Source: an uncultured Acidobacteriota bacterium (lineage in GTDB: Bacteria; Acidobacteriota; Thermoanaerobaculia; Multivoradales; UBA5704). Taken from it: a stretch of 64,000 nucleotides of DNA. Where the stretch lies: assembly GCA_963755825.1 (NCBI GenBank), contig CAVWLA010000003.1, positions 1,088,940 through 1,152,939 of the forward strand, written 5' to 3'. The stretch's first letter is position 1. The number at the start of each line of letters is the position of its first letter. Below are positions 598 through 54,055 of this stretch, one piece after another. The position numbers and the translations under genes are program-made. The notes beneath the pieces were generated by a model. That model was not told the DNA's origin. It did no database searches and was given only the letters and a program-made list of their open reading frames with translations.

Positions 598-599
598 GA

Positions 600-3535: not shown

Positions 3536-3577
3536 CGGAGAGCCCGTCCTCGGCTGCCGCGTCGCAGCTGGGAAGAA

Positions 3578-3617
3578 CCCCCGCTTCCCACCACCGAGGC
3601 GGTGGGAAGCGGGGGGG
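3578..3617 (-). terminator. GC-rich hairpin (13-bp stem CCCGCTTCCCACC / GGTGGGAAGCGGG) about 40 nt downstream of the stop of the 3658..4575 gene; candidate intrinsic terminator
   Basis: The inverted repeat is read directly from the sequence. There is no clear U-tract, which is common in high-GC genomes. Confidence 0.3.
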
Positions 3618-3657
3618 AGGGTGAACGAAAGATCAGAGAGCTTACGACAGAGCCAGC

Positions 3658-4575
3658 TTAGTGATTGGCGGCCACTCTGTAGGAGTTGTCGGACAGCGGG
3701 ACGTGGCGAACCACCTCGCGGAAGTCGACAACACCGTTCTGCAGGACCGCGACCGCGCGGCCATTCGACATCAGGCGCACCGCTTCGGCCGTGATCGAGG
3801 CACGGTGACCGACCGGCGGGATGGTGTCGACGAGCGAGTACCAGAACACCTTGTGCTCGGTCTTCATGTTGAGGTTGAGGTTCGGCATATTGACCGCGAC
3901 GTTGACCGGCGTGGAGCAGTTCTGCATCACCGCGTCGGGGTCAGCCTGGTCGATCGGCTTGGCAGGCGCCTTGGTCTTCGTGGACGACTCGTCCTTGGAG
4001 ACGGGCGACTTCACGTTGTCCTGCTTGCGCGAGCCGATCTTGCCCGGGGCCGCGTCGTTCTTCTCCAGCTTCGCCATCAGCGCGCCGGTGACGAGCTCCG
4101 GGATCTGAATGCGACCGACCTGCCCGTAGGAAGGACGGTCCTTGTCGAGAGCCACGGTGACCGGGCCGAACAGCTTGCTGTCACCACGGAGATCCATGGC
4201 GACGAACTCGGTGTCCAGAACCGCCGTGCCCCACTTGAGCTCCTTCTCGCCCTCGGCCAGATACGGCTGGCCGTGACGAACCGCGATCCAGCCCGAGAGC
4301 TCGACCGTGTCGGTGCCGATACCGTCCACCGAGTAGGTCTCATGGAGCTTCGCCCGCATCACGTCGACACCCGCATTGGGCAGCTCGTACGGACGGATCG
4401 CCACCGGCTGCATCTCGGCGAGGCCCCGCATGCCCATGTGGTTCATGTCGTTGATCACCGAGGCGACCTTCTGCTGATCGGCCGCCGAGTGATCGGCGGA
4501 CGCCGCCGCCAAAGAAACCCAAGCCGCTACACAACCTACGACCACCAACAACGACAACAGCACACGCTTACTCAT
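3658..4575 (-). CDS. Secreted hypothetical protein (signal peptide MSKRVLLSLLVVVGCVAAWVSLAAASA); noticeably lower GC than its neighbours
   Basis: 305-aa ORF with a clean N-terminal signal peptide and no motif I recognise. Codon usage is AT-richer (e.g. atgagtaagcgtgtgctgttgtcgttgttg). It is followed by the hairpin at 3578-3617. Confidence 0.6.
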   Translation of the reverse strand: MSKRVLLSLLVVVGCVAAWVSLAAASADHSAADQQKVASVINDMNHMGMRGLAEMQPVAIRPYELPNAGVDVMRAKLHETYSVDGIGTDTVELSGWIAVRHGQPYLAEGEKELKWGTAVLDTEFVAMDLRGDSKLFGPVTVALDKDRPSYGQVGRIQIPELVTGALMAKLEKNDAAPGKIGSRKQDNVKSPVSKDESSTKTKAPAKPIDQADPDAVMQNCSTPVNVAVNMPNLNLNMKTEHKVFWYSLVDTIPPVGHRASITAEAVRLMSNGRAVAVLQNGVVDFREVVRHVPLSDNSYRVAANH

Positions 4576-5016
4576 AGGATCTCCCTTCCTTCGGGGAAGA
4601 GGTTACCGTGAGACATTTGCCGGGGCCACAGGCGACGGAAATGCCTCACGACACGGATGGAAACAGACACACTTCTGGAAGGCGAAGCTCCGACTGCTCT
4701 CTCACTCTCGTCACCCTCCCAACACGGTCAGGCGTCTTGGTTTCTTGCGACGGAGTATAGCACGCAGAGGGGCCCGTCAAGGGGGCGTCAAATTCATGGA
4801 AGTCACTTTAAGGGTTGAAGATGCGGTCAAGTGACGGTGTGCTCCGACGCTTGACCCGAAGGGTCGCCGGACGTATCATCACGGCCGATTTTCCAGGCTC
4901 CGGAACGGCTCGCAAAGCTGGCGCTCGAGAGGGGGCGAGGCACCTCTCGACGCGCGGCGAAAGGACTCGGGACCGCTGGGCTCGAATCCGCACGACGACG
5001 CCGGTCGAAGCCGCTG
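4576..5016. promoter_or_regulatory. About 440-bp AT-richer divergent intergenic region between the secreted-protein gene (minus) and the ACP/KS operon (plus); likely holds promoters for both
   Basis: No ORF with coding character is present. GC is clearly lower than in flanking coding DNA. I could not identify a convincing -35/-10 pair. Confidence 0.3.
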
Positions 5017-5286
5017 ATGTCGCTAGGATCGGGGCAGGAGAGGAGTGGTGTGGAAAAGAACGGGCTGGCGGGAAAATTGCGCGAAAGGTTGGCTCTGCTT
5101 CTGGAGATCGATCCCTCGGCCATCGCCGACGAGCATCCCTTCGCCGACCTCGGCGTCGACTCGATGATGCGCCTCGAGCTGGTGGCCCTGGTCGAGCAGC
5201 ACGTGGGAGAGGAGATCCCGGAGCGGGACCTGCCCACGATGCAGACGATCGGCGAGGTGATGCGCTACGTCGAGCTCCGTGGCTGA
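5017..5286 (+). CDS. Acyl carrier protein (phosphopantetheine attachment site DLGVDSM). The true start may be GTG 5050, preceded by GGAGAGGAG.
   Basis: The DLGVDSMMRLEL motif equals the ACP Dxx(D)SL helix-II serine motif. Size is 78-89 aa. It is immediately followed by the KS gene. Confidence 0.8.
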   Translation: MSLGSGQERSGVEKNGLAGKLRERLALLLEIDPSAIADEHPFADLGVDSMMRLELVALVEQHVGEEIPERDLPTMQTIGEVMRYVELRG

Positions 5287-6469
5287 GCCGGCGGCCGTCG
5301 CCGTCACCGGCTTCGGAGTCGTCTCCTCGATCGGGGTTGGAGCGGAGAGCTTCTGGGAGGCGGTGCAGGAGGGGCGGACCTCGGCGCGGCCGGTCAGCTC
5401 CTTCGCCACCGCCGGGCTGCGCAATCATTACGGCTGTGAGATCGACGAGTCGCTGCTCGCCGGCGCCGCCCATGCGGCACCGGCCGAGCTGCCGCGCGCC
5501 AGCCGGCTGGCGGCGACCGCGGCGTTGGAGGCGCTCGGCTCGGCCGGCCTCGAGCCCGCCGACGTCGACGGGCTCTACGTCGGCACCACCATGGGCGACC
5601 TCGCCGCCGTCGAGAGCTATCTCGGCCGCGAGGGCACCGCCGCCGGCCGCGAGGCGATCGCCGCGACGCTGGGGGTGCACTTCGGCGAGCGCATCGCGCG
5701 CGCCGTCGGCGTCCAAGGATCCACCCTCACCATCGCCACCTCCTGCTCCGCCGGCAACATCGCCATCTGCCGCGCCGCCGACCTGATCGCCGGCGGCGCC
5801 AAGACGCGGCTCCTCGCCGGCGGCGCCGACGCCTTCTCGTTCCTCGCCTTCATCGGCTTCTCGCGCATGCGCGCCATGGCGCCCGAGCGCTGCACGCCCT
5901 TCGCCGCCGAGCGGCGGGGGATGCTGCTCGGCGAGGGGGCGGCCTTCGTCGTCCTCGAGTCGCTCGCCGCGGCGCGCCGGCGCGGCGCCGCGGTGCATGC
6001 CGTCGTCCTCGGCTACGGCCTCTCCTGCGACGCCCACCACATCGCGACGCCGGAGACCAGCGGCCGCGGCGCCGCGGCCGCCATGACCCGCGCCCTCGAG
6101 CGCTCCGGCCTCGCCCCCGCCGACGTCGACTACGTGAGCGCGCACGGCACCGGCACGCCGGCCAACGATCTCGCCGAGTCGCGCGCCTGCCACGCCGTCT
6201 TCGGCGACCGGCTGCCCTACATCAGCTCGCTCAAGGCCCTCGTCGGCCACTCCCTCGGCGCCGCCAGCGCGCTCGAGGCGGTGGCCTCGGTGATGAGCCT
6301 CCGCGACCAGCGGCTGATCCCCGCCTGGCACCTCGATGCGGTGGACCCCGCCTGCGACGTGCCGCTGCCGCTGCCGGGGAGCGCCGACCTCGGCCGGCCG
6401 ATCGAGGTGATCCTCTCCAACGCCTTCGCCTTCGGGGGAAACAACTCGTGCCTGGCCCTGCGGCGCTGA
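5279..6469 (+). CDS. Beta-ketoacyl-ACP synthase (KS-alpha-like, condensing enzyme)
   Basis: The Cys-His-His triad is present: active-site Cys in IATSCSAGNIAI, His in SAHGTGTP, His in LVGHSLGAAS. It starts at GTG and overlaps the ACP stop. Confidence 0.9.
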   Translation: MAEPAAVAVTGFGVVSSIGVGAESFWEAVQEGRTSARPVSSFATAGLRNHYGCEIDESLLAGAAHAAPAELPRASRLAATAALEALGSAGLEPADVDGLYVGTTMGDLAAVESYLGREGTAAGREAIAATLGVHFGERIARAVGVQGSTLTIATSCSAGNIAICRAADLIAGGAKTRLLAGGADAFSFLAFIGFSRMRAMAPERCTPFAAERRGMLLGEGAAFVVLESLAAARRRGAAVHAVVLGYGLSCDAHHIATPETSGRGAAAAMTRALERSGLAPADVDYVSAHGTGTPANDLAESRACHAVFGDRLPYISSLKALVGHSLGAASALEAVASVMSLRDQRLIPAWHLDAVDPACDVPLPLPGSADLGRPIEVILSNAFAFGGNNSCLALRR

Positions 6470-7446
6470 CGACGTCGCCGCCCGCCGGCCGCTCGTCCAC
6501 CCAGGCGTGGCCGTCGCACGTCGTGGTGACCGGCTTCGGCGCCGCCCTGGAAGGCGAGCTGCCGGTGCCGCCGGCGCTGGCGGACCTGGTGACCCGGCTG
6601 CCGGTCGCCGGCATGGACCGCTCGATCGTCGACCGCTCGCCGGCCGCCGCGGCGCTCATCGCCGCCATCGCCCGTGCCATCGCCCACCCGCGCGCCGGCC
6701 GCCTGCCGCCGCCCGAGGAGCGGGCGATCGTCGTCGGCACCGGCGCGGCGGCGCTCAACGAGGTCATCTGCTTCCTGAACGAGACCCTGGAGGTCGGCCC
6801 CAACCTGGTCAACCCCGGCCTCTTCCCGTTCACCGTCATCAACGCCGCGGCCGGCATCGCCGCCATCGAGCACTGCTTTCGGGGACCCAACCTGACGCTC
6901 AGCAACGGCGGCACCTCGGCGCTCGAAGCGATCGCCTACGCGGCCGATCTGGTCGCCTCCGGGCAGGCCACGGTGGCGCTCGCCGGCGGTTTCGAGGGCT
7001 TGAGCGCGCGCGTCGGCGAGGCCCTCGCCCGCACCGGCCCGCCGGTCTCCATCGCCGCGGTGTGGATGGTGACCACCCGCGAGCACGCCGCGGCGATGGG
7101 CGGCCTCCCCGCGGCGCGCATCCTCGCCTTCGGCGCCGGCGAATGGCCGGAGCTCGAGCCGGCCGCGGCGGCGGCGGAGATGGCGCGGACGGTGGTGGCA
7201 GCGGCCTCGGCGCTCGCCGGCGGCGCCGGCGCGGCGCCGCTCCTCGCCGCGGCCAGCCCCGAGCTCGGCCTCCTCGCCCTCATCGGCGCCGTCGAGCGGC
7301 TGGCGAGCGGCGAGCTGTCGGCAGAGCAGTCCGGAGCGCGGTCCGAAGATCAGCCGGCCCACCTCCTGCCGGTGGTCGCCGCCGGAGAGTCCCGCGGCAG
7401 CGCGGCGGCCCTGGCGCTGGCGCCGGCCGGAAGCGGGCGGCCGTGA
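6448..7446 (+). CDS. KS-like protein lacking the active-site Cys (chain-length-factor / KS-beta-like partner)
   Basis: It has a thiolase-fold N-terminus (HVVVTGFGAAL). At the position of the KS Cys it reads LSNGGTSALEAI, so Cys is replaced by Gly. It overlaps the KS gene by 22 nt and the DH gene by 4 nt. Confidence 0.75.
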   Translation: MPGPAALTTSPPAGRSSTQAWPSHVVVTGFGAALEGELPVPPALADLVTRLPVAGMDRSIVDRSPAAAALIAAIARAIAHPRAGRLPPPEERAIVVGTGAAALNEVICFLNETLEVGPNLVNPGLFPFTVINAAAGIAAIEHCFRGPNLTLSNGGTSALEAIAYAADLVASGQATVALAGGFEGLSARVGEALARTGPPVSIAAVWMVTTREHAAAMGGLPAARILAFGAGEWPELEPAAAAAEMARTVVAAASALAGGAGAAPLLAAASPELGLLALIGAVERLASGELSAEQSGARSEDQPAHLLPVVAAGESRGSAAALALAPAGSGRP

Positions 7447-7895
7447 CCGGCCGCGAGCTCATCGCGCTCCTGCCGCATCGGCCGCCCATGCTGCTGCTCG
7501 AGGATGCCGAGACGGAGGGCGACCGCGCTCTCGTCGCCCACCAGACGATCGCCGCCGAGAGCCCCTTCCTGGCCGGCCACTTCCCGGATTTCCCGGTCTG
7601 GCCCGGCGCCCTCCTCCTCGAGGCGATGGCGCAGACCACGGCGATCTACCTCCTCAGCACCCGCGACGGCCTCCGCGAGGGCGAGGTCCCGGTGCTCGGC
7701 GCCGTCGACTGCCGCTTTCTCCACCCGGTCTTCCCCGGCGACCGCATCGAATATCGCTCCGAGCTGGTGCGCCGCATCGGCGACCTCGGGCTCTTCCAGG
7801 TGACCGCGAGCCGCGGCGGCGAGGTGGTGGCGCGCGGGCGATTTTCGGCCGGACTCACCCAGCGCTCCGGTCTGACCGCTAAGATCTCGCCGTAG
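7443..7895 (+). CDS. 3-hydroxyacyl-ACP dehydratase, FabZ/FabA-like hotdog fold
   Basis: LPHRPPMLLLED...AGHFPDFPVWPGALLLEAMAQT matches the FabZ catalytic-His motif. GTG start overlaps the CLF stop (GTGA). Confidence 0.85.
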   Translation: MTGRELIALLPHRPPMLLLEDAETEGDRALVAHQTIAAESPFLAGHFPDFPVWPGALLLEAMAQTTAIYLLSTRDGLREGEVPVLGAVDCRFLHPVFPGDRIEYRSELVRRIGDLGLFQVTASRGGEVVARGRFSAGLTQRSGLTAKISP

Positions 7896-8642
7896 ATGCT
7901 CTTCAGCGGACAGCGGGCCCTGGTGGTCGGCGCCAGCGGCGCCATCGGTCGCGCCGTCGCCGAGGATCTCCTCGCCCAGGGCTGCGACGTCGCCCTCACC
8001 TTCCACCGCCACAGCGACCTCTCGGCGCAGCTCGTCGCCCAGGCCGAGACGCTCGGCCGGCGCTGTTTCGCCTACGCCCTCGACGTGCGCGATCCCGCCG
8101 CCGTCGCCGCGATCTGCCAGCGCGCCGCCGACGACCTCGGCGCGCCGCCCTCGCTCCTCGTCAACACCGCCGGCATCCTCCGCGACCGGCCGCTCGGCCA
8201 GCTCGAGCCGGACGACTGGCGCGACGTCCTGGAGACCAACCTCTTCGGCGCCTTCTACCTGATCCGCCAGGTGGCGCCCTTCATGATGCATCACGGCGGC
8301 GGCCGGATCGTCAGCGTCGCCTCGGTCTCCGGGCTCTTCGGCCAGCCGGGGCAGGCGAACTACGCGGCGTCCAAGGGCGGCGTCATCGCCATGACCCGCG
8401 CCCTGGCGCGCGAGCTGGGGCCGCTCGGCATCACCGTCAACGCGGTGGCGCCGGGCCTCGTCGACACCGAGATGACCTCGTCGCTCTCGGCGGTCGTCAA
8501 GCGCCAGTTCCTGCAGCGCATCCCGCTGCGCCGCTTCGCCACCCCGGCGGACATCGTGCCGGTGGTGCGCCTGCTGCTCTCCGCCGAGGCGAGCTACATC
8601 ACCGGCCAGGTGCTGGTGGTCGACGGCGGCCTGACCTGCTGA
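7896..8642 (+). CDS. 3-oxoacyl-ACP reductase (FabG-like SDR)
   Basis: Rossmann motif GASGAIGRAV, NAG motif, catalytic YAASKGG (YxxxK). 248 aa. Confidence 0.9.
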   Translation: MLFSGQRALVVGASGAIGRAVAEDLLAQGCDVALTFHRHSDLSAQLVAQAETLGRRCFAYALDVRDPAAVAAICQRAADDLGAPPSLLVNTAGILRDRPLGQLEPDDWRDVLETNLFGAFYLIRQVAPFMMHHGGGRIVSVASVSGLFGQPGQANYAASKGGVIAMTRALARELGPLGITVNAVAPGLVDTEMTSSLSAVVKRQFLQRIPLRRFATPADIVPVVRLLLSAEASYITGQVLVVDGGLTC

Positions 8643-8656
8643 CGGCGCCGGCGGCC

Positions 8657-9958
8657 ATGGAACGACGCGTCGCCATCACCGGCATCGGCATGCTGAACGC
8701 CGCCGGCGCCGGCATCGATGCCATCTGGGAGCGGCTGCGCAGCGATCCGCCGCGGCCGGTGGAGTTCGCCGGAGCGCCGCCCACCGAGGGCATCCGCTTC
8801 CCCGTCTACCGGGCGGTCGACTACCGCCTCGCCGAGCTGCCGGTGCCGGCGCGCTGCCGGCGCTGGCTGGCCGAGGAGGGGCTCGAGCACCTCGTCGACC
8901 TCCGCCACCTGATCGGCGCCACGGCTCTCGCCCTCGACGACGCCGGCCTCGCCCCCCACCACGGCGGGGAGGAGCCGCCGGTCGCCGTCGTCGTCGCCGA
9001 CGAGAGCCCGGGATTCGACGCCCTCAGCCAGGCCCTCTTCGAGCTCGGACTCGAGGCGCCGGTGCCTGCCGAGCCGGCGGCGCGCTACGCTCATCTCGCG
9101 GGCCACTTCTTCCAGCTCAACAGCTTCCTCCTCCCCCACTACCTCGCCCGCGCCTTCGGTTTCGAGGGGCTGTCGCTGTTCGTCAACTCCGCCTGCACCT
9201 CGGGCTTGAACGCCCTCGAGATCGCGGCGCAGGAGATCCGCTCCGGCCGCTCGCTCGTCGCCCTCGCCGCCGCCGCCGACGATCCGCTCTCCGCCGCCAA
9301 GTTCCTCTGGTTCCACTCGCTCGGGCTCTACTCGACGGCGGGGACCCTGCGCCCGTTCGACGCCGAGCCGGCCGGCACGGTGTTCGGCGACGGCGGCGCC
9401 GCTCTCGTCCTCGAGGACCTGGAGAGCGCCCGCCGCCGCGGCGCGCGGATCTACGGCGAGCTCCTCGGCTGCGGCTTCGCGCAGGACGGCTGGAAGATCA
9501 CCGTGCCGCAGCCGACGCGCGCCCTCGCCGCCAAGGCGATCGAGCGGGCGCTCGCCGCCGGCCGGGTCGAGGCGGCGGCGGTCGATCTGGTCGTTCCCCA
9601 CGGCGTCGGCACCGCCGCCTCGGACGGCTACGAGGCGCTCGTCCTCCACCAGATCTTCGCGCCGCTGCCGCGCTGGCCGGCGGTGACCGCCTTCAAGCCG
9701 ATGATCGGTCACAACCTGGGCGGCGCCGCGCTGATGGAGATCGGCCTTCTGCTGGCGGCGATGTGGCACGGCTCCATCCCGCCGACCCTCGGTCACCGGC
9801 TGCCGCCGAAACGCCACCCGCTGCCGCTCGTCACCCGCTGGACGGAGCGGAGCGTCGAGCTGGCGGTCAAGCTCACCTGCGGCTTCGCCGGCTACTTCGG
9901 CGCCGCGGTCTTCCGGCGCCACGGCGGCGGCGCCGGCCAGGGAGCGGAATCGCCATGA
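8657..9958 (+). CDS. Beta-ketoacyl-ACP synthase (second KS)
   Basis: VAITGIGMLNAAG start, active-site Cys in NSACTSGLNALE, His in VPHGVGTAASD, His in MIGHNLGGAALME. Confidence 0.9.
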   Translation: MERRVAITGIGMLNAAGAGIDAIWERLRSDPPRPVEFAGAPPTEGIRFPVYRAVDYRLAELPVPARCRRWLAEEGLEHLVDLRHLIGATALALDDAGLAPHHGGEEPPVAVVVADESPGFDALSQALFELGLEAPVPAEPAARYAHLAGHFFQLNSFLLPHYLARAFGFEGLSLFVNSACTSGLNALEIAAQEIRSGRSLVALAAAADDPLSAAKFLWFHSLGLYSTAGTLRPFDAEPAGTVFGDGGAALVLEDLESARRRGARIYGELLGCGFAQDGWKITVPQPTRALAAKAIERALAAGRVEAAAVDLVVPHGVGTAASDGYEALVLHQIFAPLPRWPAVTAFKPMIGHNLGGAALMEIGLLLAAMWHGSIPPTLGHRLPPKRHPLPLVTRWTERSVELAVKLTCGFAGYFGAAVFRRHGGGAGQGAESP

Positions 9959-11103
9959 GAGACGCTGACAATCCGGTCGACCGGCTGATCGACGCGAGCT
10001 ACCTCGAGACCTCGCGGCGGGCGACGGACTACGTCGCCGCGCTGAGCGTCGGCATCCTCCGCGAGCTGGGGCTCTGGAACGCCGCGGACCTCGAGCAGCC
10101 GCGCACGGCGGGCGAGTGGATGACCGCGCTCGCCGTCGTCGAGGAGCTCGGCATCGCCTTCGCCTGGCTGCTCGAGGAGGGTCGGCGCCTCGGCGCCCTG
10201 GGCGTCGCGCCCGGCGGCGGCTCGCAGGCGCCGGCCGGGCCGCTCTACGCGCCCGCCGCGCCGGCGGTCGCCGAGGAGATCGTCGGCGGCCTGGCGGCGC
10301 TCCGCGACCGGGCGATCGGCTCGGGCTCGTCGCTCGAGATGTTCGACTACGTCGCCTCGCGCTACGTCGACTTCCTGCGCGGCCAGCGCTCGGGAAACGC
10401 CATCCTCTACAAGGGTGCGGCCCTCGAGGTGACCTGCCGCTACTACTCGGCGGCCAACCCGCTCTACGACGTCCACAACCAGCTCGGCTGGCTGGGCGTC
10501 GAGGCGGCCCTCGCCCGGCTCGGGCGCCCGGCGCGCCTGCTCGAGGTGGGCGCCGGCACCGGCGGCGCCACCGAGGCGGTGCTGCGCGGCCTGGCGGCGG
10601 GCGCGCCCGCCGCGGGCGGCAGCCTCGTCGTCACCGACATCTCTCCCTCGTTCGCGCTCGGCACCGTCGAGCGCCTGGCGAGCGGCGGCGCGCTGCCGAT
10701 CCCCCTCGAGCACCGCAAGCTCGACTTCACCCGCCCGCCGCTCGAGCAGGGCGTGGCGCCCGGCAGCGTCGACGTGATCCTGGCGGTCAACGCCCTCCAC
10801 AACGCCGGCGATCCCGTCGCCGCGCTCGCCAACCTGCGCTCCTACCTGGCGCCCGACGGCTCTCTGGTCGTCTCCGAGTCGATCTGCGACCCCGGCGCCC
10901 ACGTGCACCAGGAGTTCGTCTTCAACCTGCTGCCGTACGCCCCGCGCGGCCGCTTCCGCGCCGAGCCGCCGACCTCGCGCTTCCTCTCCGCCGCGGCGTG
11001 GGGAGAGATCCTCGGCGAGGCAGGGTACGGCGGCGAGGTGCGGCGCAACGGCGAGGGGCCGCAGCTGGCGCTCCTCGCCATCGCGCGGCCCGGCGGCCTC
11101 TGA
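9955..11103 (+). CDS. Class I SAM-dependent methyltransferase
   Basis: Motif I LLEVGAGTGGATEAV and motif II VDVILAVNALH. ATG at 9955 overlaps the KS2 stop (ATGA). The ORF-track start at 9763 would overlap KS2 extensively, so I trimmed it. Confidence 0.8.
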   Translation: MRDADNPVDRLIDASYLETSRRATDYVAALSVGILRELGLWNAADLEQPRTAGEWMTALAVVEELGIAFAWLLEEGRRLGALGVAPGGGSQAPAGPLYAPAAPAVAEEIVGGLAALRDRAIGSGSSLEMFDYVASRYVDFLRGQRSGNAILYKGAALEVTCRYYSAANPLYDVHNQLGWLGVEAALARLGRPARLLEVGAGTGGATEAVLRGLAAGAPAAGGSLVVTDISPSFALGTVERLASGGALPIPLEHRKLDFTRPPLEQGVAPGSVDVILAVNALHNAGDPVAALANLRSYLAPDGSLVVSESICDPGAHVHQEFVFNLLPYAPRGRFRAEPPTSRFLSAAAWGEILGEAGYGGEVRRNGEGPQLALLAIARPGGL

Positions 11104-11106
11104 CCG

Positions 11107-11127
11107 CGGATCGAGCGGCCGCCGCTC
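11107..11127. terminator. Palindrome GAGCGGCCGCCGCTC in the 22-bp gap between the convergent methyltransferase and LolA-like genes; candidate bidirectional terminator
   Basis: Inverted repeat read from the sequence. It overlaps the LolA-like stop codon. Confidence 0.25.
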
Positions 11128-12019
11128 AGGGGCCGCTGCGCACCAGGAGACCGCTCGCGACCCACGCGGTCCAGCGGTCGGCGACCGTCGGCAGCATGGC
11201 GGGCTCGAAGAGCTGTGGCCCGATGGCGGCGGGCAGCGCGCCGATGTCCCTCAAGGTGAGCACCGAGGAGCGGCCGCCGGCGAGGAGCATGGTCATCCTG
11301 AGCGGCGTCCACGACGTCCCCACCTGCCTGAACGCATCGATGCGGAGCTGCTTCTCGGGCGCTCCCGCCGCCTGGCGGAAGAAGTCGGCGCCGAGGATGA
11401 GCTGGCGGTCGGCGCTGAGGTAATAGCGAACGCGGGACCAGGCGGTGCTCTCGGCGACCGCCGGCGTCGCCGGCACGGCGTCGACCATCCACACCTCGCG
11501 GCCGCGCAGCAGGGTCTTCCCCGCCAGCGTCAGGCGGCGGCCGGCGGCCAGGCGCCAGCGCAGGTCGGTGTAGCTGAAGTCGGACCCCAGGAGCCCCTCC
11601 TCGAAGCGGCCCGGGGTGATCGTCAGCACCTGCCGGAGGCCGACCGGGAGGCGCATGTAGAGGGTCATGCCGGTCGGCACTTTCGGGTCCTCGTCGAGCA
11701 GATAGCTGGTGCCGCGCAGGCCGGCGGGCTGCTCGAGCACCACCAGGGAGCGCAGCTGATCGCCGATCGGGCGCCAGAAGTGGAGCACCGTGAAGGTGCG
11801 GGTGACCGTCGCGCCCGACTTGAGCTCGAGGTAGACCCGCCGCCAGCCGGGGCTGCCGAAGTCGCGGGCGTTGTAGGCGCGGACGAGCCCCGCGGCGTCC
11901 GCGGCGGCTGCCGGGGGAACGGCGGCGGTGGCGGCACGGGCTGCGGCGGCCGTCACCTCGGAACGGGTTCCGGCGACCGCCGCCAGCGCCAGCAGGGCGG
12001 CGAGGCATCTGGCTCTCAT
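11126..12019 (-). CDS. LolA-like outer-membrane lipoprotein carrier/sorting protein (signal peptide)
   Basis: 297 aa with N-terminal signal MRARCLAALLALAAVAG and a predicted beta-rich mature protein. It sits directly downstream of, and overlaps, the MMPL exporter gene, which is the LolA+MMPL pairing typical of aryl-polyene type clusters. The fold assignment comes from that context and my recollection of the family. Confidence 0.55.
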   Translation of the reverse strand: MRARCLAALLALAAVAGTRSEVTAAAARAATAAVPPAAAADAAGLVRAYNARDFGSPGWRRVYLELKSGATVTRTFTVLHFWRPIGDQLRSLVVLEQPAGLRGTSYLLDEDPKVPTGMTLYMRLPVGLRQVLTITPGRFEEGLLGSDFSYTDLRWRLAAGRRLTLAGKTLLRGREVWMVDAVPATPAVAESTAWSRVRYYLSADRQLILGADFFRQAAGAPEKQLRIDAFRQVGTSWTPLRMTMLLAGGRSSVLTLRDIGALPAAIGPQLFEPAMLPTVADRWTAWVASGLLVRSGP

Positions 12020-14328
12020 GGGTTCTCCCGGCGCAGGAAGGCGCAGCTCGGCACGACGAGGAGGGTGAGCGCCGCGCAGAGCGCCATGGCGAAGCAGACC
12101 AGGATGCCGAGCTCGCGGTTGGGCGGCACCACCGAGAAGCAGAGGACGGAGAAGCCGCTGACGATGGCGATCGTGCTGGCGAGGATCGCCGGCCCGGTCA
12201 TCACGTAGGCCTCGAGCATCGCCTCCCCGTCGCTCTTCGCCCGGCGGCGGACCTGGTATTGGGCCACCAGGTGGATGGCATAGTCGATGCCGATGCCGAG
12301 CGCGATGCTGGCGAACATCGAGTTCGCCGTGCCCAGCGGCACGCCGAGCGCCGCCAGGGTCCCCAGCACCAGCAGCACGCTCACCGCCACCGGCAGCACC
12401 GACATCAGCGCCGCGCGCAGCGAGCGGAAGAGGGCGAGCGTCAGCAGCAGGTCGAAGGCGAGGGCGAAGCCGATCGAGCGCGCCTGCCCGACCACCAGCG
12501 AGCGCACCGCCAGGTAGCCGATCCAGCCGTCGCCGAACGGCACCACGTGGGCGCCCTCGCCGAGCACCTGCTGCGCCGAGCGCTCGGCGAGCTCGAGCAC
12601 CTCGCGGATGCGCGAGTAGTTGGCGCCGCGGACGAAGACCAGCAGGTGGGCGTAGCGCGCCTCGCCGTCGAGCCGGCGGGCGCTGGAGAGCCGCATCGCC
12701 GAGCTGATGAGCACCACCGCCTGCTCGATCTCCTGCTGCGACAGCGAGCGCGTCCCCTGCTTGAGCTCGCGCCGGTAGGTCCGATAGTCGACGCGGGAGA
12801 GCGCCGCGGCGACGCGCACGACGTCGCCATACGGGCTCATCGTGGCGCCCACCCAGGGGCTGGCGGCCAGCCGGTCCTCGATCTCGCCGATCCCCCGGAG
12901 CGCTCCCGGCGCCAGGAAGCCGTCGCGGCCGCCGCTGTCGATCATCAGGTCGAGGGTGTTGGTGCCGGCGAGCAGCCGGTTGATGGCGCGATCCCCCCGC
13001 ACCGTCTCGCTCGCGGCGGGGAGGTTCCCCACCCAGTTGTCCTCGATCTTCAGGCGGGTGACGGCGAGGGCGAGCGCCGGGAGGGCGAAGAGGGCGACGG
13101 CGGCGAGCGCTCTCCCCGCCCCGCCGCCCGCCAGCCGCCGCGCGAACGACTCGAGGCCGCGCTCGGCGACGCGGGTGAACGGGCTGTCGCCGGGCTTCAG
13201 CTGGGGATCGATGAGCACCAGGAGGGCGGGGAGGAGGGTGAAGGTGAAGACCACCGAGAAGAAGACCGAGAGCGCGCCGTAGGTGCCGAAGATGCGCTGC
13301 GGCTCGAGCTTCACCACCGCCAGCGAGAGCAGCCCGGCGAGGGTCGCCGCCGCGGTGACGCGGATGGCCGGGATGACGAAGGAGAAGGCGACCAGGGCGG
13401 TCTCCGCCACCGGCCTCTGCGGTTGGCGGCGCGACTCGACGCAGAAGCGGTTGAGCGCGTAGACGTCGTCGGTGACGCCGATGACGATGAGGATGACCGG
13501 CAGAGTCAGAGTGGTGATGAAGACCGACTCGCCGCGGAGCCCCATCAGACCGAGCGTCCAGAGCAGGCTGACGCCGACCTCGATGAGCGAGGCGAGCGGC
13601 GGGATGGGATGCGCGAGGACGAGGCTCATCACCACGATGAGGACGACGATGACGATGGGGACCAGCCAGGCGAGGTCGTGCGCCGAGGTCACCCCGAGGG
13701 CCGCCTGCGCCATCACCGTGCCGCTCGAATAGAGGGGGAGGCCGCGGCGGCGATAGCGCGCCACCAGGCGGTCGATGCGAAGCCCGAGCTCGGCGCGGTC
13801 GGCCGCCGGCTCGACCTCGGCGTAGATGGCCGCCGCCCGCCCGTCGCGGGTCACCAGGATGCCGTCGTCGAGGCCGGTTTCGGCGGTCTCCCGCCGCAGC
13901 TGCCGCGCCATCCGCTCGTCGGCGGCGGCGCCGCGGGCGAGGAGCGCGCGCAGGTCGAGGTTGTCGCCCTCGAGCGAGAAGTGAGGCACGGTGGCGAGGC
14001 TGCTCACCGACTCCGGCAGGATCCCCTCGGTGGCGGCGAGGTCGCGGCTCAGCTCCTGCACCAGCCGCAGGGCGTCCGGCGTGAAGATCCCGCGGCCGCC
14101 GCCGGCTCCCCCGCCGTCGATACCGAGGACGACGACGTCGTTGAGGCCGAAGCGGCGCGCGGCGGAGTCGCTGGCGCGCATCTCGGGGGCGCCCTGCGGG
14201 ATGAGCGCGCGGGCGTCGAGCCGCAGGCGGACGCGGGGGATCGCGCAGCAGGCGAGGACCGTCAACAGCGCGGCGATGGCGACGATCAGCCGCGGATGGC
14301 GGACCGAGAAACGGAGGAGAAAGTGCAT
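12016..14328 (-). CDS. MMPL-family RND exporter (lipid/pigment exporter, ApeM/HpnN-like)
   Basis: Trimmed from the 1402-aa ORF to Met MHFLLRFSVRHPRLIVAIAALLTVL. It has two 6-TM bundles separated by periplasmic loops and ends ...VVPSCAFLRRENP. About 770 aa. Confidence 0.85.
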   Translation of the reverse strand: MHFLLRFSVRHPRLIVAIAALLTVLACCAIPRVRLRLDARALIPQGAPEMRASDSAARRFGLNDVVVLGIDGGGAGGGRGIFTPDALRLVQELSRDLAATEGILPESVSSLATVPHFSLEGDNLDLRALLARGAAADERMARQLRRETAETGLDDGILVTRDGRAAAIYAEVEPAADRAELGLRIDRLVARYRRRGLPLYSSGTVMAQAALGVTSAHDLAWLVPIVIVVLIVVMSLVLAHPIPPLASLIEVGVSLLWTLGLMGLRGESVFITTLTLPVILIVIGVTDDVYALNRFCVESRRQPQRPVAETALVAFSFVIPAIRVTAAATLAGLLSLAVVKLEPQRIFGTYGALSVFFSVVFTFTLLPALLVLIDPQLKPGDSPFTRVAERGLESFARRLAGGGAGRALAAVALFALPALALAVTRLKIEDNWVGNLPAASETVRGDRAINRLLAGTNTLDLMIDSGGRDGFLAPGALRGIGEIEDRLAASPWVGATMSPYGDVVRVAAALSRVDYRTYRRELKQGTRSLSQQEIEQAVVLISSAMRLSSARRLDGEARYAHLLVFVRGANYSRIREVLELAERSAQQVLGEGAHVVPFGDGWIGYLAVRSLVVGQARSIGFALAFDLLLTLALFRSLRAALMSVLPVAVSVLLVLGTLAALGVPLGTANSMFASIALGIGIDYAIHLVAQYQVRRRAKSDGEAMLEAYVMTGPAILASTIAIVSGFSVLCFSVVPPNRELGILVCFAMALCAALTLLVVPSCAFLRRENP

Positions 14329-14372
14329 CGAGAGGAGGGCCTCAGGCGGCGGGCGCTCCGGGAGGACAGCCG

Positions 14373-16256
14373 CTAACGCCGCTTGCCGCCGTGGGCGTCG
14401 GCCGCGGCTGGTGCCGCCGGTGCCGGCGGTATCGGCGCGGCCGGCGGAACCGCCAGCGCGCGCTGGGCCTTGGCGACGGCGTCCTCGGCGTAGGCCTCGC
14501 GGACGTTGAGCAGCTCGAAGGAGAGGTAGCGGTCTCCCTCGGCGCTCGCCGTCCAGCCGCGGTAGACCGGCGGCACCCGGAACATGAACTCCGGCCAGAA
14601 GCGCTCGGGCCCGACCTCGCGCCCGGCGACCTTGAAGTTGGGATCGATCTTGCCGTCGCCGTCGAGATCGGTGGGCAGCGTGTCGGGCTGGTAGAGGATC
14701 AGCGAGCGCAGGAACGCCTGCACGTCCTCGCGATCGGCCGCCGACGCCGCGGCGTACCGCTGCTGGGATTGCGCGGCCTCGCCGCCGTGGCGGCGGATGA
14801 CGTCGTCGAGGGAGGGGCTCTGGCCGTCGTGCCCGTAGGGGGCGCTGGAGCCGGCGCCCCACAGCGCCAGGGTGCGGAAGCGCTTGGTGACGAAGAGCTT
14901 GCCGTCGCGGTAGTCGTACTCCCAGAAGCGCTCGCCGAGGTCGTGATGGCGCAGGTCGGTGAAGACGTTGTCGACGGTGAAGCCGCCGCGCTTCGGCACC
15001 ACCAGCGTGCGGCCGTCCGCTCCCGGCACCTCGCGGGTGAGCGAGCGCATCGTCCCCTCGAGACGGCGGGCGGAATCGTTCCACGCCACGTGGAGGTCGA
15101 AGAAGCGGCGGTCGCCGGGCATGCCGGAGCGCTCGTCGGCGGGCAGGATGTCCCAGCGCGCGGTATGGCAGGAGGTGCAGGCCATGGCGTCCATCAGCCG
15201 GCGGCCGTGCTGGGTGCCGGCGGTCTGCGGCCCCACCGCCGGCGCCGGGTGGTTCATCAGGTACCACTCGAGGAGGTCGAGCTCGCCCTCGCCGATCTTG
15301 CCCCGCTGGTCCTTGTCCTTCAGCGCGGCGGGGTCGCCGGTGAGGAAGATCTCGGACTGCAGCGACCCGGCGTTGCTCCTCTTGCCCCAGTCGAGCAGCC
15401 AGAAGCCGGCGGGCGTGTGGGCGACGGGGACGTCGATGAGGATGCCGTTGATGGTGTTGAAGACGCCGATCGAGAACGAGCGCATAGAGGGGAACTGGTG
15501 GTCGCCCGCCGAGGTCGCGAAGGCGCCGATCTCCAAGTCGTAGCCGACGATGCCGGGCGTCGTCAGGCGGGCCACCTTGCCGTCCGGGGCCCGCTTCACC
15601 CGCTCGCCGTGGGCGCCCACCATCCGCACGATGAAGATGGGGTTCAAGTCGGGAAGGCCGTCGCCGTTGAGGTCGTCGAGCGGGCCGAAGTCGACCGTCA
15701 CGCCGGGCGACGACTCGATCACCGCGCGGCGCCCCTTGGTCTCGGCGGGGTAATCGAGGAAGCCGTTGTGGTTGGTGTCGTAGGCGTCGAGGATCTGCTG
15801 CCGGATCTGCAGACCGATGGTCTCGATCAGGCCGTCGCCGAAGAGGTGGGGGGCGTTGCGCCCCGGGCCCACCGGGATGGCGACGTCGCCGCCGGCTCCG
15901 GGGCTGGCGAAGGGGAGGTTGTGGCACATGCCGCAGGAGGTCGACGAGGTCGCCTCGGGCCGCTTGGGCAGCGAGCGCATGGCGCCGTCCTCGGCCCCCC
16001 ACTCGCGGAAGAAGTACCAGCGGCCGAGCTGATAGGTGAGCCAGGGGTCGTGCTGCTGGAGGTCCATCGAAGTGCCCGGCGCGCCCGGCGTCGACGAGTG
16101 CAGGACGCGCATCCGCGGCGTGCGGAGCGAGATGCCGCTGGGATCGTCGGGGCGGACGGAGAGCTGGGCGCCGGCGCGCACCGAGAGCGCCACCAGGGGG
16201 ACCAGCAGCAGCAGCAGGCTCCAACGCAAGGGCCGGTTATTGAGCGCTCGGCGCAT
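14373..16256 (-). CDS. Di-heme c-type cytochrome, DUF1111 / 'di-haem oxidoreductase, putative peroxidase'-like, secreted, with EF-hand-like Ca-binding loops
   Basis: Signal peptide. Two CxxCH motifs (CGMCHNL and CTSCHTARW). DxNxNG / DxDGDG loops (DTNHNGFLDYPAE, DDLNGDGLPDLN, DLDGDGKIDPN). 627 aa. Confidence 0.6.
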   Translation of the reverse strand: MRRALNNRPLRWSLLLLLVPLVALSVRAGAQLSVRPDDPSGISLRTPRMRVLHSSTPGAPGTSMDLQQHDPWLTYQLGRWYFFREWGAEDGAMRSLPKRPEATSSTSCGMCHNLPFASPGAGGDVAIPVGPGRNAPHLFGDGLIETIGLQIRQQILDAYDTNHNGFLDYPAETKGRRAVIESSPGVTVDFGPLDDLNGDGLPDLNPIFIVRMVGAHGERVKRAPDGKVARLTTPGIVGYDLEIGAFATSAGDHQFPSMRSFSIGVFNTINGILIDVPVAHTPAGFWLLDWGKRSNAGSLQSEIFLTGDPAALKDKDQRGKIGEGELDLLEWYLMNHPAPAVGPQTAGTQHGRRLMDAMACTSCHTARWDILPADERSGMPGDRRFFDLHVAWNDSARRLEGTMRSLTREVPGADGRTLVVPKRGGFTVDNVFTDLRHHDLGERFWEYDYRDGKLFVTKRFRTLALWGAGSSAPYGHDGQSPSLDDVIRRHGGEAAQSQQRYAAASAADREDVQAFLRSLILYQPDTLPTDLDGDGKIDPNFKVAGREVGPERFWPEFMFRVPPVYRGWTASAEGDRYLSFELLNVREAYAEDAVAKAQRALAVPPAAPIPPAPAAPAAADAHGGKRR

Positions 16257-18195
16257 GGCTCGCCACCGTCTCCTTCTTGGGCAGCCCGCCGAGCACGTCG
16301 GGAAAGCCGTCGTGATCGGCGTCCGCTCGATAGGGCAGGTTGAGGCCGAAGGCCTCGGGGATGTTGGTGATCACCTGCAGCAGCCTGGCGTGGCCGCGCG
16401 GATCGGTGACCGTCGCCAGATAGCGGTAGACCGGCGGATGCTTGAACAGGAAGTGGGCGTCGAAGCGCTCGTAGCCGACGCTCTGGCCGGCGACCTTGAA
16501 GTCGTCGGCGATCTTGCCGTCGCCGTCGATGTCGGCGGGGATCTCGGTCGTCGGATAGAGCACCAGCGAGCGCAGGTACTCGAGCAGCAGCTCGCGCTTC
16601 GCCTCCGGCAGGGCGCGATAGGCGGCGGCCTCCGCCTCGGCGCTGCCGCCGTGCGCCCAGATCGCGGTGTCCAAGGTGGCGAAGTTGCCGCCGTGACCGT
16701 ACGGCCCCGTGCTGCCGGCGCCCCACAGCGGCGCCGTGCGGTGCTCGCGCTGCAGGGTGCCGTCGAAGCGGCGCTCGAAGAAGGCCGGCCCGATGTCCCA
16801 GTGCTTGAAGTCGCTGTAGACCCGCGGCACGGCGGCGGCGGCGCCGCTCGGCGACAGATCGCCCTTGGCGGAGCGCTTCCACAGCCGCTCGAGCGAGCCG
16901 ACGATCTCGGTCGAGCCGTCCGCGGCGACCCGGCTGTGGGTCGCCAGGTGGAAGAGGCGGCGGTCGCCGCTGAAGCCGAGCTTGTCGTCGCGCGCCTCGA
17001 CGCGCCAGCTCTCGACGTGGCAGCGGGTGCAGCCGATCTCGGTCAGCACGGCGCGGCCCTCTTCGCTGTGCGCCGTCGGCCGCACCGTCGGCGGCGGGGT
17101 GTGCAGGATGTAGAACTCGATGGCGTCGAGATCGCCCTCGGTGAGCTCGCTGACGACGCCGTCGTGGTCGGGATCGTCGAGCGAGATGCCGCCCGCCGTG
17201 CGCCGCAGGCCGGGATCGACCGAGCCGCCGAAGTCGTACTGCTGGGCGCCGTTCAGCGACACCCGGGCGCGGCCGCCGTAGCCGCTCGGCCCGCCGTTGG
17301 CGTTCTGCTGCGTCGGATCGTGGGCCTGGAGGCCCATGTGGACGTCGGCGGCGGTGGCGTAGAACTCGCGCACCGTCGCCGCCTCGCCGCCCTGCGAGAT
17401 GCGGCGCTCGCCGACCCGCCGGTAGCCGCGGCCCCAGCCGAAGGGCTCCATGGCGAAATCGAACGCCGCCACCCGCGGATCGTCGAGGCCGACGGCGTCC
17501 TTGATCACCTTGCCGGCGCTGTCGACGTACCAGAGGCGGAAGACGGTGTTGAGGCGCGGCACGCCGTCGGCGCCGGGCGCCAGATCGCCGTAGTCGATCG
17601 CCGGGGCGTCCGGGCGCGGCCGGATGAGCGCCGGCATCGCCGCCTTCACCTCGGCGCGGTCGATGACGCCGTTGTGGTTGGTGTCGTATTGATTCATCAG
17701 CATCGTGCGCACCTGCGCGCCGAGCATCTCGACCAGGCCGGCGCCGTAGAAGTGCGTCGTGTTGCGCCCGAAGCCGCTGGTCGAGGCGATGGTCTGGCCG
17801 GAGGAGGGCTCGCTGTAGACGCTCGAGTGGCACATGCCGCAGCTGGCGGCGTGGTTGCGCGCGAAGCGCGCCCCGCCGTGCACCAGCCCCTGCGTCGGCT
17901 CGGCGTAGAGCGGCACGTCGAGGGCGCCGATGCGGCCGTAGACGCCGTGCTTGAGCTCGAACTGGCGGTTCACCAGGTCGCGGCCGGTCTGGTACAGCAG
18001 GAAGGGGTCGTGCGCCCGCAGATCCGCCGTGGCGCCGCGCTTGGCGGTGTCGGTGGAGGAGACGAGATGGATCAGCGGATAGGGGATCGCCGTGCCGGTC
18101 GGATCGCTCGCGTTCTCCGCGACCTGAGCCCACACCGCGGCGACAGATCCGAGGAGCAGAACCGCGAAGAGACCTTTGCCGACCTCGCCTGCCAT
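16237..18195 (-). CDS. Di-heme c-type cytochrome, paralog of the previous gene (DUF1111-like)
   Basis: CGMCHSS and CTRCHVESW heme-binding motifs, DTNHNGVIDRAE and DIDGDGKIADD loops, signal peptide MAGEVGKGLFAVLLLGSVAAVWAQV. Its stop overlaps the start of the downstream paralog by about 20 nt. Confidence 0.6.
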   Translation of the reverse strand: MAGEVGKGLFAVLLLGSVAAVWAQVAENASDPTGTAIPYPLIHLVSSTDTAKRGATADLRAHDPFLLYQTGRDLVNRQFELKHGVYGRIGALDVPLYAEPTQGLVHGGARFARNHAASCGMCHSSVYSEPSSGQTIASTSGFGRNTTHFYGAGLVEMLGAQVRTMLMNQYDTNHNGVIDRAEVKAAMPALIRPRPDAPAIDYGDLAPGADGVPRLNTVFRLWYVDSAGKVIKDAVGLDDPRVAAFDFAMEPFGWGRGYRRVGERRISQGGEAATVREFYATAADVHMGLQAHDPTQQNANGGPSGYGGRARVSLNGAQQYDFGGSVDPGLRRTAGGISLDDPDHDGVVSELTEGDLDAIEFYILHTPPPTVRPTAHSEEGRAVLTEIGCTRCHVESWRVEARDDKLGFSGDRRLFHLATHSRVAADGSTEIVGSLERLWKRSAKGDLSPSGAAAAVPRVYSDFKHWDIGPAFFERRFDGTLQREHRTAPLWGAGSTGPYGHGGNFATLDTAIWAHGGSAEAEAAAYRALPEAKRELLLEYLRSLVLYPTTEIPADIDGDGKIADDFKVAGQSVGYERFDAHFLFKHPPVYRYLATVTDPRGHARLLQVITNIPEAFGLNLPYRADADHDGFPDVLGGLPKKETVASHAPSAQ

Positions 18196-18495
18196 TCCGG
18201 TTGTCCAGCCCACCGCTCGCCGAACGTGATGCCGCGAAAAAGGGTTAGCTTTGGCCGCGAAGTATTCCACGCTGGTGGGTGACCGTCAACCGCGCCGGCG
18301 CCTCGCTCGACGCTTGAGGCTCGTCGCAAATGTGGGTCCGGTGCGCCGCCCGCACCATTGCGCATGGACGTAGCGTGTGCGCAAGCTGCGGCGGCCCGCC
18401 GGAGCCTTCTCCAGGGCCCCGCCGCCGCGGCCGCGGCGTGCTACCATTGAGCGCAACTGGCGACCAGCAAGAACTTCCGGAGATTTAGAATCGTC

Positions 18496-28316: not shown

Positions 28317-28320
28317 AGCC

Positions 28321-35055: not shown

Positions 35056-35198
35056 GGCGAAAATTGACATACAATCGCAACGTTCACCGTGCTCTGTAGG
35101 GTCCGATGCGCGAACCTCGGGAGGCAGGAATCTCCGCCGCGGGGAGACCGCTGTCTCGCGCATCCAACAGCTTTCCGACGAGCGAAAGGGGATTGGCC

Positions 35199-38953: not shown

Positions 38954-39038
38954 CGATTCATCGCGGTGAGCACTCCGCCCCCCGAGCTCCTCCCCGGAAT
39001 CCCGATCGAGATCGCCGGCCGGCGGCCCGAGTCGGGCC

Positions 39039-48548: not shown

Positions 48549-48571
48549 TCCTCTCTCCTCGCGACCGCCGC

Positions 48572-52078: not shown

Positions 52079-52113
52079 GCCGTTCGGCCAGGCGCGCGAA
52101 AGCTTGCCGGCCC

Positions 52114-54031: not shown

Positions 54032-54055
54032 GGCGCCGATGTCCGCGGTCCGACC

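Follow-up and report, generated by a model that had tools for sequence, protein, structure and literature searches.

A dissociated type II polyketide synthase operon beside enediyne-type E3, E4 and E5 genes in an uncultured member of the Acidobacteriota

What does a set of small, discrete polyketide-type enzymes make when it is encoded next to genes known from enediyne clusters, and do the two belong together? This question is raised by a 64,000-nucleotide stretch of DNA (the window) from an uncultured Acidobacteriota bacterium (assembly GCA_963755825.1, contig CAVWLA010000003.1, positions 1,088,940 to 1,152,939, forward strand). A sequence-only reading had recognized, at positions 5017 to 18195, genes for an acyl carrier protein (ACP), a ketosynthase (KS), a KS partner without the active-site cysteine (chain-length factor, CLF), a dehydratase (DH), a ketoreductase (KR), a second KS and a methyltransferase (MT), converging on genes for an MMPL exporter and a LolA-like carrier, and had taken them for an aryl-polyene (APE), flexirubin or xanthomonadin pigment cluster in a probably acidobacterial background of about 70% GC. 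The genes are all present, in this order and at essentially these coordinates, and the background is as described, with a GC content of 72% and the nearest relatives among metagenome-assembled genomes (MAGs) of Thermoanaerobaculia/Acidobacteriota. The range also included two dihaem oxidoreductase (DHOR) genes that were not named, and the divergent operon directly upstream (1 to 4575), which is the most informative part of the window, was overlooked. It encodes homologues of E3, E4 and E5, and we lean towards the view that a highly reducing type II polyketide synthase (PKS) with a discrete C-methyltransferase (C-MT) here replaces the enediyne synthase PKSE together with E10, and feeds E3, E4 and E5.

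Genes were called by third-position GC (GC3), as many spurious open reading frames overlap the true genes at this GC content. The reading frames of the PKS and export genes combine GC3 values of 0.93 to 0.97 with strong Pfam or NCBIfam matches, and Pfam scans covered all called genes of the window. The PKS genes overlap or almost abut, which points to a single plus-strand operon (5017 to 11103) with the order ACP-KS1-CLF-DH-KR-KS2-MT:

5017 to 5286, plus strand: ACP with a DSM serine motif (PP-binding, E=5e-15; below all AcpP equivalog cut-offs)
5279 to 6469, plus strand: KS1, an active ketosynthase by its residues (N- and C-terminal ketoacyl-synt domains; Cys156-His289-Lys319-His324)
6448 to 7446, plus strand: CLF-like inactive KS partner (partial match to the N-terminal ketoacyl-synt domain only; 332 residues, truncated; neither the Cys nor either His)
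7443 to 7895, plus strand: FabZ-like 3-hydroxyacyl-ACP dehydratase, DH (FabA domain, E=1e-18)
7896 to 8642, plus strand: FabG-like ketoreductase, KR, of the short-chain dehydrogenase/reductase type (adh_short_C2, E=1e-59)
8657 to 9958, plus strand: KS2, a second ketosynthase, active by its residues (Cys-His-His-Lys kept; divergent N-terminal part)
9955 to 11103, plus strand: discrete PKS-type C-methyltransferase, MT (N-terminal helical part and Methyltransf_12; its ATG overlaps the KS2 stop codon)

The genes of KS1 and CLF overlap by 22 nucleotides. The lack of the cysteine in CLF is borne out by the alignment, in which glycine takes its place and both histidines are missing; this is true of all CLF homologues aligned, which are 264 to 332 residues long. 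Judged by their sequences, KS1 and CLF would form a KS-CLF pair, and the partner of CLF could be KS1 or KS2. Compared with solved structures, KS1 matches amxFabF2 of anammox bacteria best (9s5h_B, 278 bits), followed by Iga11 of the ishigamide system (6kxd_A, 230 bits) and ordinary FabF proteins (190 to 221 bits), and the best PDB matches of CLF are amxFabFmut (9s5h_C, 60 bits) and Iga12 (6kxd_B, 47 bits). The identification of 9s5h with amxFabF2/amxFabFmut follows from a Brocadia KS in locus L018, which matches 9s5h_B at 858 bits (numbers preceded by L denote the loci retrieved for comparison). KS2, which is found in every lineage of the cluster inspected, scores 136 bits against amxFabF2, about 120 bits against FabF, 101 bits against AbApeR (7f27_A) and 93 bits against PpApeR (4ewg). 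The only PDB relatives of the MT are 7dmb_A and the C-MT domains of LovB, CurJ, PksCT and DisA, with which it aligns at the S-adenosylmethionine motif LEVGAGTGG, the histidine of NALH and the glutamate of VVSE 26 residues further on.

No enoyl reductase, acyltransferase, phosphopantetheinyl transferase (PPTase) or thioesterase is encoded in the PKS operon, and no enoyl reductase-type gene was seen in the cluster of the window or in L001 to L005, L169 and L170. At L001, a 2.7-Mb contig and the nearest type II relative, an 819-residue "KS2-MT fusion" (13440 to 15899) was considered as a sign of coupling and discarded, as tblastn jumps frame at 14579/14581; the frame jumps in KS2-MT and a split ACP (9797 to 9962) point to frameshift artefacts of sequencing or assembly. 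Gene calls from this contig need care, its ACP gene seeming absent through frameshift. Membership in a cispentacin-type (Amc) system was also rejected, the NCBIfam matches to AmcF, AmcG, AmcE and AmcB all lying far under their cut-offs.

The operon directly upstream runs on the minus strand, divergent from the PKS operon:

3658 to 4575, minus strand: DUF6073 secreted protein or lipoprotein, first gene of the operon (Pfam DUF6073, 2e-24)
2573 to 3535, minus strand: E3/UnbL-like protein without signal peptide (DUF1702, PF08012, E=4.5e-101)
600 to 2576, minus strand: E4/UnbV-like FG-GAP beta-propeller with an N-terminal membrane anchor (FG-GAP_3, PF13517, 8e-25; C-terminal UnbV_ASPIC, PF07593, 4e-11)
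1 to 597, minus strand: E5/UnbU-like integral membrane protein, RnfD/NqrB-like (N-terminal 199 of 313 residues; cut by the window start)
4851 to 4879, plus strand: sigma-70-like promoter match, TTGACC-17-TATCAT, at 10 of 12 positions (0.1 expected in shuffles; a consensus match only)

E3, E4 and E5 are essential for the formation of the enediyne warhead. Together with PKSE (E) and E10 they make up the minimal PKS cassette, the five genes common to all enediyne clusters (PMC5181780, PMC7692728), in which DUF1702 is labelled an enediyne biosynthesis protein (PMC7692728) and the roles of E3, E4 and E5 are described as "still uncertain" (PMC11069151, 2024). The names under which homologues of the window proteins are deposited agree with this assignment: E3 homologues carry the JGI label "enediyne biosynthesis protein E3", and E5 homologues at 70 to 75% identity are called "enediyne biosynthesis protein UnbU" (NCBI) or "E5" (JGI), one of the UnbU-named proteins coming from a Thermoanaerobaculia bacterium. 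A full-length E5 (P0241) is 100% identical across the fragment in the window, and E4 would presumably reside in the periplasm. The closest link to a true enediyne-type cassette is provided by L086/L087, an Acidobacteria MAG in which positions 10001 to 21020 encode E3-E4-E5, a 1980-residue KS-AT-ACP-KR-DH-PPTase protein (AT, acyltransferase), a 4HBT thioesterase and an MMPL protein, that is, the canonical order E3-E4-E5-PKSE-E10 followed by an exporter; its gene in the E5 position encodes a 302-residue RnfD-like membrane protein that matches PF03116. The E3, E4 and E5 of the window are 54%, 58% and 65% identical to those of L086, about as high as their identity to L001, while E4 is 63% identical to its counterparts in L001 and L005. 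A second PKSE-type locus, L085 (1 to 13643 of a 5.2-Mb contig), has the variant order PKSE-E3-E4. Soil metagenomes yield thousands of homologues of E3 and of E5. Orthologues of DUF6073 adjoin the PKS operon in L001, L005 and L169, the latter with two copies, and the sigma-70-like match lies in the 441-bp intergenic region between the two divergent operons, upstream of the ACP gene.

Whether the neighbourhood of PKS and E3/E4/E5 genes is more than local can be judged from the distribution of KS1. Its family is small: among 5.8 billion proteins, about 57 clusters (at 90% identity) are at least 48% identical to KS1, and in 185,579 species genomes, two of the 80 loci that match best encode a KS1 of at least 50% identity. 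Scans of genomes and metagenomes with a KS1 alignment returned, among the matches listed, mostly FabF-like KSs, the members of the family being L005, L006 and two short contigs. L001 has divergent operons in the same layout as the window. In L005, a Thermoanaerobaculia MAG, an E4-E5-DHOR-DHOR-DUF6073 operon is divergent from the ACP-KS1-CLF genes, and L004 combines the genes in a single overlapping operon (x-E4-E5-ACP-KS1-CLF-DH-KR-KS2-MT-E3), an arrangement seen up to the MT gene in L003/L006, a Bacteroidetes MAG (x-E4-E5-ACP-KS1-CLF-DH-KR-KS2-MT). At L169, the PKS follows two DUF6073 genes, and the contig stops after it. More distant versions, with a KS1 40 to 44% identical to that of the window, are found in the metagenome loci L121 and L125 (ACP-KS1-CLF-KR-KS2...E3...E4-E5) and in two cultured Firmicutes, namely Brevibacillus humidisoli (CP087263.1, 1,603,051 to 1,624,229, L171; AraC-x-KS1-E5-E5-CLF-KS2-KR-ACP-E3-E4-AMP ligase) and Marinicrinis sediminis KCTC 33676 (NZ_JBHUMM010000043.1, 721,716 to 742,885, L030; MT-AraC-x-KS1-CLF-KS2-KR-ACP-E3-E4). 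Eight further contigs with KS1-family members equal in size contigs with a match to E3 (9969, 67147, 22818, 3234, 3237) or to E5 (92641, 26707, 32122). In a neighbour-joining tree, the E3-E5-linked KS1s form a group of their own, separate from the other FabF-like KSs retrieved, Thermoanaerobaculia and anammox sequences among them. Altogether, the linkage recurs in four divergent lineages of at least three phyla (Acidobacteriota, Bacteroidota, Bacillota) with differing gene orders, and this recurrence, together with the interleaving of the genes within operons, argues for a functional unit.

The two Firmicute versions both carry a PLP-dependent (pyridoxal phosphate) decarboxylase and an AMP-ligase; L171 additionally encodes KAS III-like proteins and a pre-ATP-grasp protein, and L030 an aminotransferase, a PhyH dioxygenase, a cupin and an additional methyltransferase. 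These extra genes suggest an amino-acid-derived or amide-linked end product in the cultured strains. Outside the KS1 family, many of the FabF-like KS genes of Acidobacteriota that are 41 to 45% identical to KS1 (L022, L077, L016, L029, L044 and others, at about 10001 to 12400) precede a divergent KS-like paralogue, an arrangement shared with amxFabF2/amxFabFmut of anammox bacteria. By sequence, heterodimers of the KS/CLF type may be frequent in the phylum.

On its other side, the PKS operon is met by a convergent minus-strand operon (11126 to 18195) of the order DHOR-DHOR-MMPL-LolA-like; a possibly associated plus-strand module is listed after it:

16237 to 18195, minus strand: DHOR copy 2, first gene of the operon (PF06537, 9e-11)
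14373 to 16256, minus strand: DHOR copy 1, DHOR/DUF1111-type (PF06537, 2e-9; two CxxCH motifs, signal peptide)
12016 to 14328, minus strand: MMPL/HAE3-type transporter of the resistance-nodulation-division (RND) superfamily (MMPL, Patched and sterol-sensing Pfam matches; TIGR00921, 152 bits, under cut-off)
11126 to 12019, minus strand: LolA-like protein of the outer-membrane lipoprotein-sorting type with a signal peptide (PF17131, E=2e-19)
26160 to 35747, plus strand: possibly associated module with a TonB-dependent receptor, a flavin-dependent halogenase-like enzyme, a GT4 glycosyltransferase, an ABC ATPase, a 1151-residue FtsX permease and a 184-residue membrane protein

The DHOR pair connects the two minus-strand operons, lying in the MMPL-LolA operon in the window and in the E4-E5 operon in L005. 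Orthologues of copy 1 are near the cassette in L002 and L005, and orthologues of copy 2 (64% identity) come immediately after E4-E5 in L005 and lie close to E5 in L001. LolA-like orthologues come after the MT gene in L001 and L170, and an MMPL gene also comes after the PKSE cassette in L086.

The module at 26160 to 35747 may possibly belong to the same cluster. Five of its genes (26160 to 35055) are 52 to 72% identical to a set in L088 (1 to 11023) that ends in a DUF1702/E3 gene, and the 184-residue membrane protein (35193 to 35747), which matches no Pfam family, has an orthologue (46% identity, weak DUF1761 match) directly downstream of E5 in L001. The position of this orthologue makes it seem that parts of one system are scattered over 35 kb in the window. 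The halogenase-like enzyme displays the motifs GxGxxG, KIGES and WFWYIP. A 2024 paper reports in its title a diiodotetrayne intermediate of enediyne biosynthesis; in view of that title, a halogenase close to E3-family genes deserves mention.

From the enzyme set, a sequence of events can be proposed. Malonyl-ACP would be loaded by the housekeeping FabD, and KS1-CLF, KR and DH would extend the chain iteratively in the cytoplasm without enoyl reduction, resulting in a conjugated polyenoyl-ACP, the same kind of product as PKSE makes. KS2 and the translationally coupled C-MT could add a methyl-branched condensation, either as the starter or as the final step. The linkage of the genes suggests that the chain would then pass to the cytoplasmic E3, the membrane protein E5 and the periplasmic E4, joined in the Thermoanaerobaculia lineage by the two periplasmic DHORs and DUF6073, which may carry out oxidative tailoring at the membrane or in the periplasm. 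Delivery of the lipid-like product to the outer membrane would fall to the MMPL transporter and the LolA-like protein. Going by the sequences, the cluster would thus be an E3/E4/E5 cassette equipped with a type II synthase, one that works in the manner of the highly reducing type II PKSs of the APE or Iga type, and its product would probably be a polyunsaturated, methyl-branched envelope lipid.

Several other explanations compete with this proposal. That the operon is simply the housekeeping type II fatty acid synthase (FAS) is hardly conceivable, even though its best NCBIfam matches are to FabF, FabZ and FabG models. KS1 reaches 284 bits with the FabF model TIGR03150 (cut-off 494; a type I PKS model gives 127 bits), DH 96.6 bits with the FabZ model PRK00006 (cut-off 113) and ACP 33 bits with the AcpP model (cut-off 70), and KR exceeds the cut-off of the FabG subfamily model NF009466 (235 against 222 bits). 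The sub-cut-off scores, the dead CLF, the absence of FabD, FabH, FabI or any other fab gene from the 64 kb and the rare, sporadic occurrence of the family, whose relatives have other FabF-like KSs at 43 to 45% identity, support a secondary type II system, in agreement with the sequence-only reading, which had also set the operon apart from housekeeping synthesis. An APE, flexirubin or xanthomonadin cluster, yielding an aryl-capped polyene anchored in the outer membrane via the LolA-like and MMPL proteins, accounts for the enzyme classes (ACP, KS/CLF, second KS, KR, DH, MT, MMPL and LolA-like) and for the chemical logic, and homologues of DH bear precomputed ApeI-like and ApeP-like Pfam matches. 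The orthology of the ketosynthases is one of the points at which this identification fails. KS1 scores 157 bits against XdApeO (ApeO, 6qsp_A), 142 bits against AbApeO (7f28_B) and 150 bits against AbApeR (7f27_A), each below ordinary FabF as well as Iga11 and amxFabF2 (PDB identities of the Ape ketosynthases from PMC8358021); KS2, fitting AbApeR less well than FabF, is not an ApeR-type second ketosynthase; no ApeC chain is among the PDB matches of CLF; and KR remains under the FlxB cut-off (NF053542, 197.8 against 340 bits). A single DH is present in place of an ApeI/ApeP pair. The operon had been noted to lack an AMP-ligase, an ammonia-lyase or chorismatase, an acyltransferase and a thioesterase, which is confirmed and extends to the flanks: Pfam scans of the 64 kb yielded no AMP-ligase, ammonia-lyase (tyrosine ammonia-lyase, TAL, included), chorismate-lyase-type or other chorismate-utilising gene, acyltransferase or thioesterase. 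In or beside the operons there is no thioesterase, LPLAT acyltransferase or glycosyltransferase, glycosyltransferases being confined to other gene sets, from 29.6 kb on. The LolA-MMPL pair, regarded as a hallmark, does adjoin the PKS in the window, L001 and L170 but is absent beside the cassette in L002, L003, L004 and L169 and from the distant members, whereas E3/E4/E5 recur. On this evidence a pigment cluster is distinctly unlikely, and such clusters should not be filed as aryl-polyene from KS/CLF plus MMPL/LolA alone.

A specialised envelope fatty-acid pathway is also unlikely, yet it deserves more serious attention. In this case the chain would be methyl-branched and largely saturated, the housekeeping FabI reducing the enoyl intermediates, and MMPL and the LolA-like protein would export an outer-membrane lipid that E3, E4 and E5 modify or handle. 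In its favour are the closest solved KS/CLF pair, the amxFabF heterodimer of anammox bacteria, the FabZ- and FabG-like character of DH and KR, the envelope and sugar-modification genes in the surroundings, and the resemblance of the MMPL protein to HpnN and HAE3 lipid exporters; it is opposed by the lack of an enoyl reductase at any related locus inspected, by the polyene-forming pair Iga11/Iga12 being next-closest, and by PKSE, a polyene former (PMC8341276), filling the same position in sister cassettes. A chance juxtaposition of independent PKS, E3/E4/E5 and DHOR-MMPL-LolA operons would fit the three separate transcription units of the window, the PKS genes of L002 and L170, which have no E3-E5 nearby, and the abundance of the E3 family in Acidobacteriota (thousands of matches, compared with about 57 KS1-family clusters). 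It is very improbable in the light of the interleaving within single operons of L004 and L171, the latter with two E5 genes between KS1 and CLF, and of the linkage in three phyla with different gene orders. The proposal of a type II synthase feeding E3, E4 and E5 has, in turn, to contend with a number of observations that weigh against it. The missing enoyl reductase is the sole ground for deducing a conjugated polyene; enoyl reduction could come from a housekeeping FabI acting in trans, and the solved KS pair nearest to KS1 and CLF is treated as an enzyme of fatty-acid synthesis. Nothing in the window encodes a release enzyme, be it a thioesterase or an acyltransferase. E3, E4 and E5 are absent within 10 kb of the PKS cassette in L002 and L170, so that the synthase may work without them; E3 was not found in the sequence covered of L003 and L005, and it is present without a nearby PKS in L088. 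By tblastn, the Firmicute, L121 and L125 versions contain no DH. The linkage frequencies are lower bounds from a small context sample, and the neighbour-joining tree of the KSs carries no bootstrap support. Finally, the AlphaFold2 model of E3 is a predicted helical repeat without an enzyme-like structural neighbour and offers no clue to its chemistry.

A more far-reaching version of the favoured proposal, that of a type II synthase supplying E3, E4 and E5, can be put forward tentatively: the cluster could correspond to the enediyne warhead cassette in a dissociated, type II form, in which E3, E4 and E5 turn a polyunsaturated chain into a scaffold that is polyyne-like, enediyne-like or without precedent. 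In the acidobacterial version, the periplasmic DHORs and, possibly, the flavin-dependent halogenase may come in addition. If this were true, E3, E4 and E5 would not be tied to PKSE, and their chemistry could become accessible in tractable Firmicutes through type II proteins that are small and separable. In the accessible literature E3, E4 and E5 are treated as partners of PKSE, and here they are repeatedly coupled to a wholly different, dissociated synthase; open-access papers yielded no account of E3/E4/E5 coupled to the genes of a type II PKS. This coupling makes it testable which features of a carrier-bound substrate E3, E4 and E5 need and what their function is, and with Brevibacillus humidisoli and Marinicrinis sediminis two cultured hosts other than actinomycetes carry the cluster. 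The data also indicate an uncharacterised class of envelope-associated polyketide lipids, which may be widespread, some E3/E5 cassettes being joined to MMPL exporters.

The remainder of the window holds seven paralogous PQQ_2/BamB-like beta-propeller genes (18514 to 22226, 24869 to 26167, 35660 to 37168 and 47244 to 51335), some of which adjoin a gene for an Fe-alcohol dehydrogenase (22258 to 23406) and a HemN-like radical SAM gene (23785 to 24846). Envelope sugar-modification genes (37196 to 42094 and 51332 to 58074) encode two PMT_2 (ArnT-like) glycosyltransferases, a sulfatase, a GT2 glycosyltransferase, an NDP-sugar dehydratase/epimerase, a DegT aminotransferase, a UDP-GlcNAc 2-epimerase, an ArnA-like formyltransferase and a PIG-L deacetylase. 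In L001 the DegT, formyltransferase and PIG-L genes come directly after MMPL, which suggests an insertion or rearrangement of about 35 kb in the window compared with L001. No RNA features emerged when the window was scanned with Rfam and for tRNAs.

Set against known systems, the cluster shares with APE clusters the logic of a KS/CLF pair with a second KS, KR, DH, ACP and methyltransferase, the lack of an enoyl reductase, and MMPL plus LolA-like export. It differs from them in ketosynthases that are not orthologues of ApeO and ApeR, in its single DH, in a methyltransferase of the PKS C-MT type and in the absence of the ApeH ligase, the ApeK thioesterase, the ApeD acyltransferase and the ApeJ glycosyltransferase, its conserved partners being E3, E4 and E5. 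The anammox pair amxFabF2/amxFabFmut (9s5h), part of a ladderane-associated FAS cluster and characterised as initiating fatty-acid synthesis (bioRxiv 10.64898/2026.05.19.726425), resembles the KS1-CLF pair in combining a FabF-like active KS with a dead adjacent paralogue and is the best solved match to both proteins, but the two pairs are no more than about 40% identical and have different gene neighbours, and, as far as a PDB sequence search can tell, the MT of the window has no relation to the anammox SAM methyltransferase. Membership in a ladderane cluster was rejected on account of this low identity and because the anammox loci that were fetched showed no E3/E4/E5. Among characterised polyene-forming pairs, KS1/CLF is closest to Iga11/Iga12 of the highly reducing type II PKS for ishigamide (Iga10 to Iga13 and Iga16), which likewise uses a discrete ACP, KR and DH without an enoyl reductase; here, too, identity is only about 40%, and the window differs by a much shorter CLF (264 to 332 residues in its family), the addition of KS2 and C-MT, the coupling to E3/E4/E5 and a Gram-negative, acidobacterial host. 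Of the five genes that define the enediyne cassette of the sgc, cal and tnm clusters, the window possesses three. It has neither PKSE, a type I enzyme with KS-AT-ACP-KR-DH-PPTase architecture, nor the E10 thioesterase: no type I PKS or 4HBT-type thioesterase is encoded in the window, where the sole hot-dog protein is the FabZ-like DH, and no enediyne self-resistance genes were seen there. It adds a dead CLF, a second KS, a C-methyltransferase, the DHORs, DUF6073 and the MMPL/LolA-like pair. In common with the enediyne cassette, E3, E4 and E5 stand next to a synthase that provides the KS, ACP, KR and DH activities of PKSE without an enoyl reductase, but in the window this synthase consists of discrete FabF-, FabZ- and FabG-like type II proteins that are not derived from PKSE domains.

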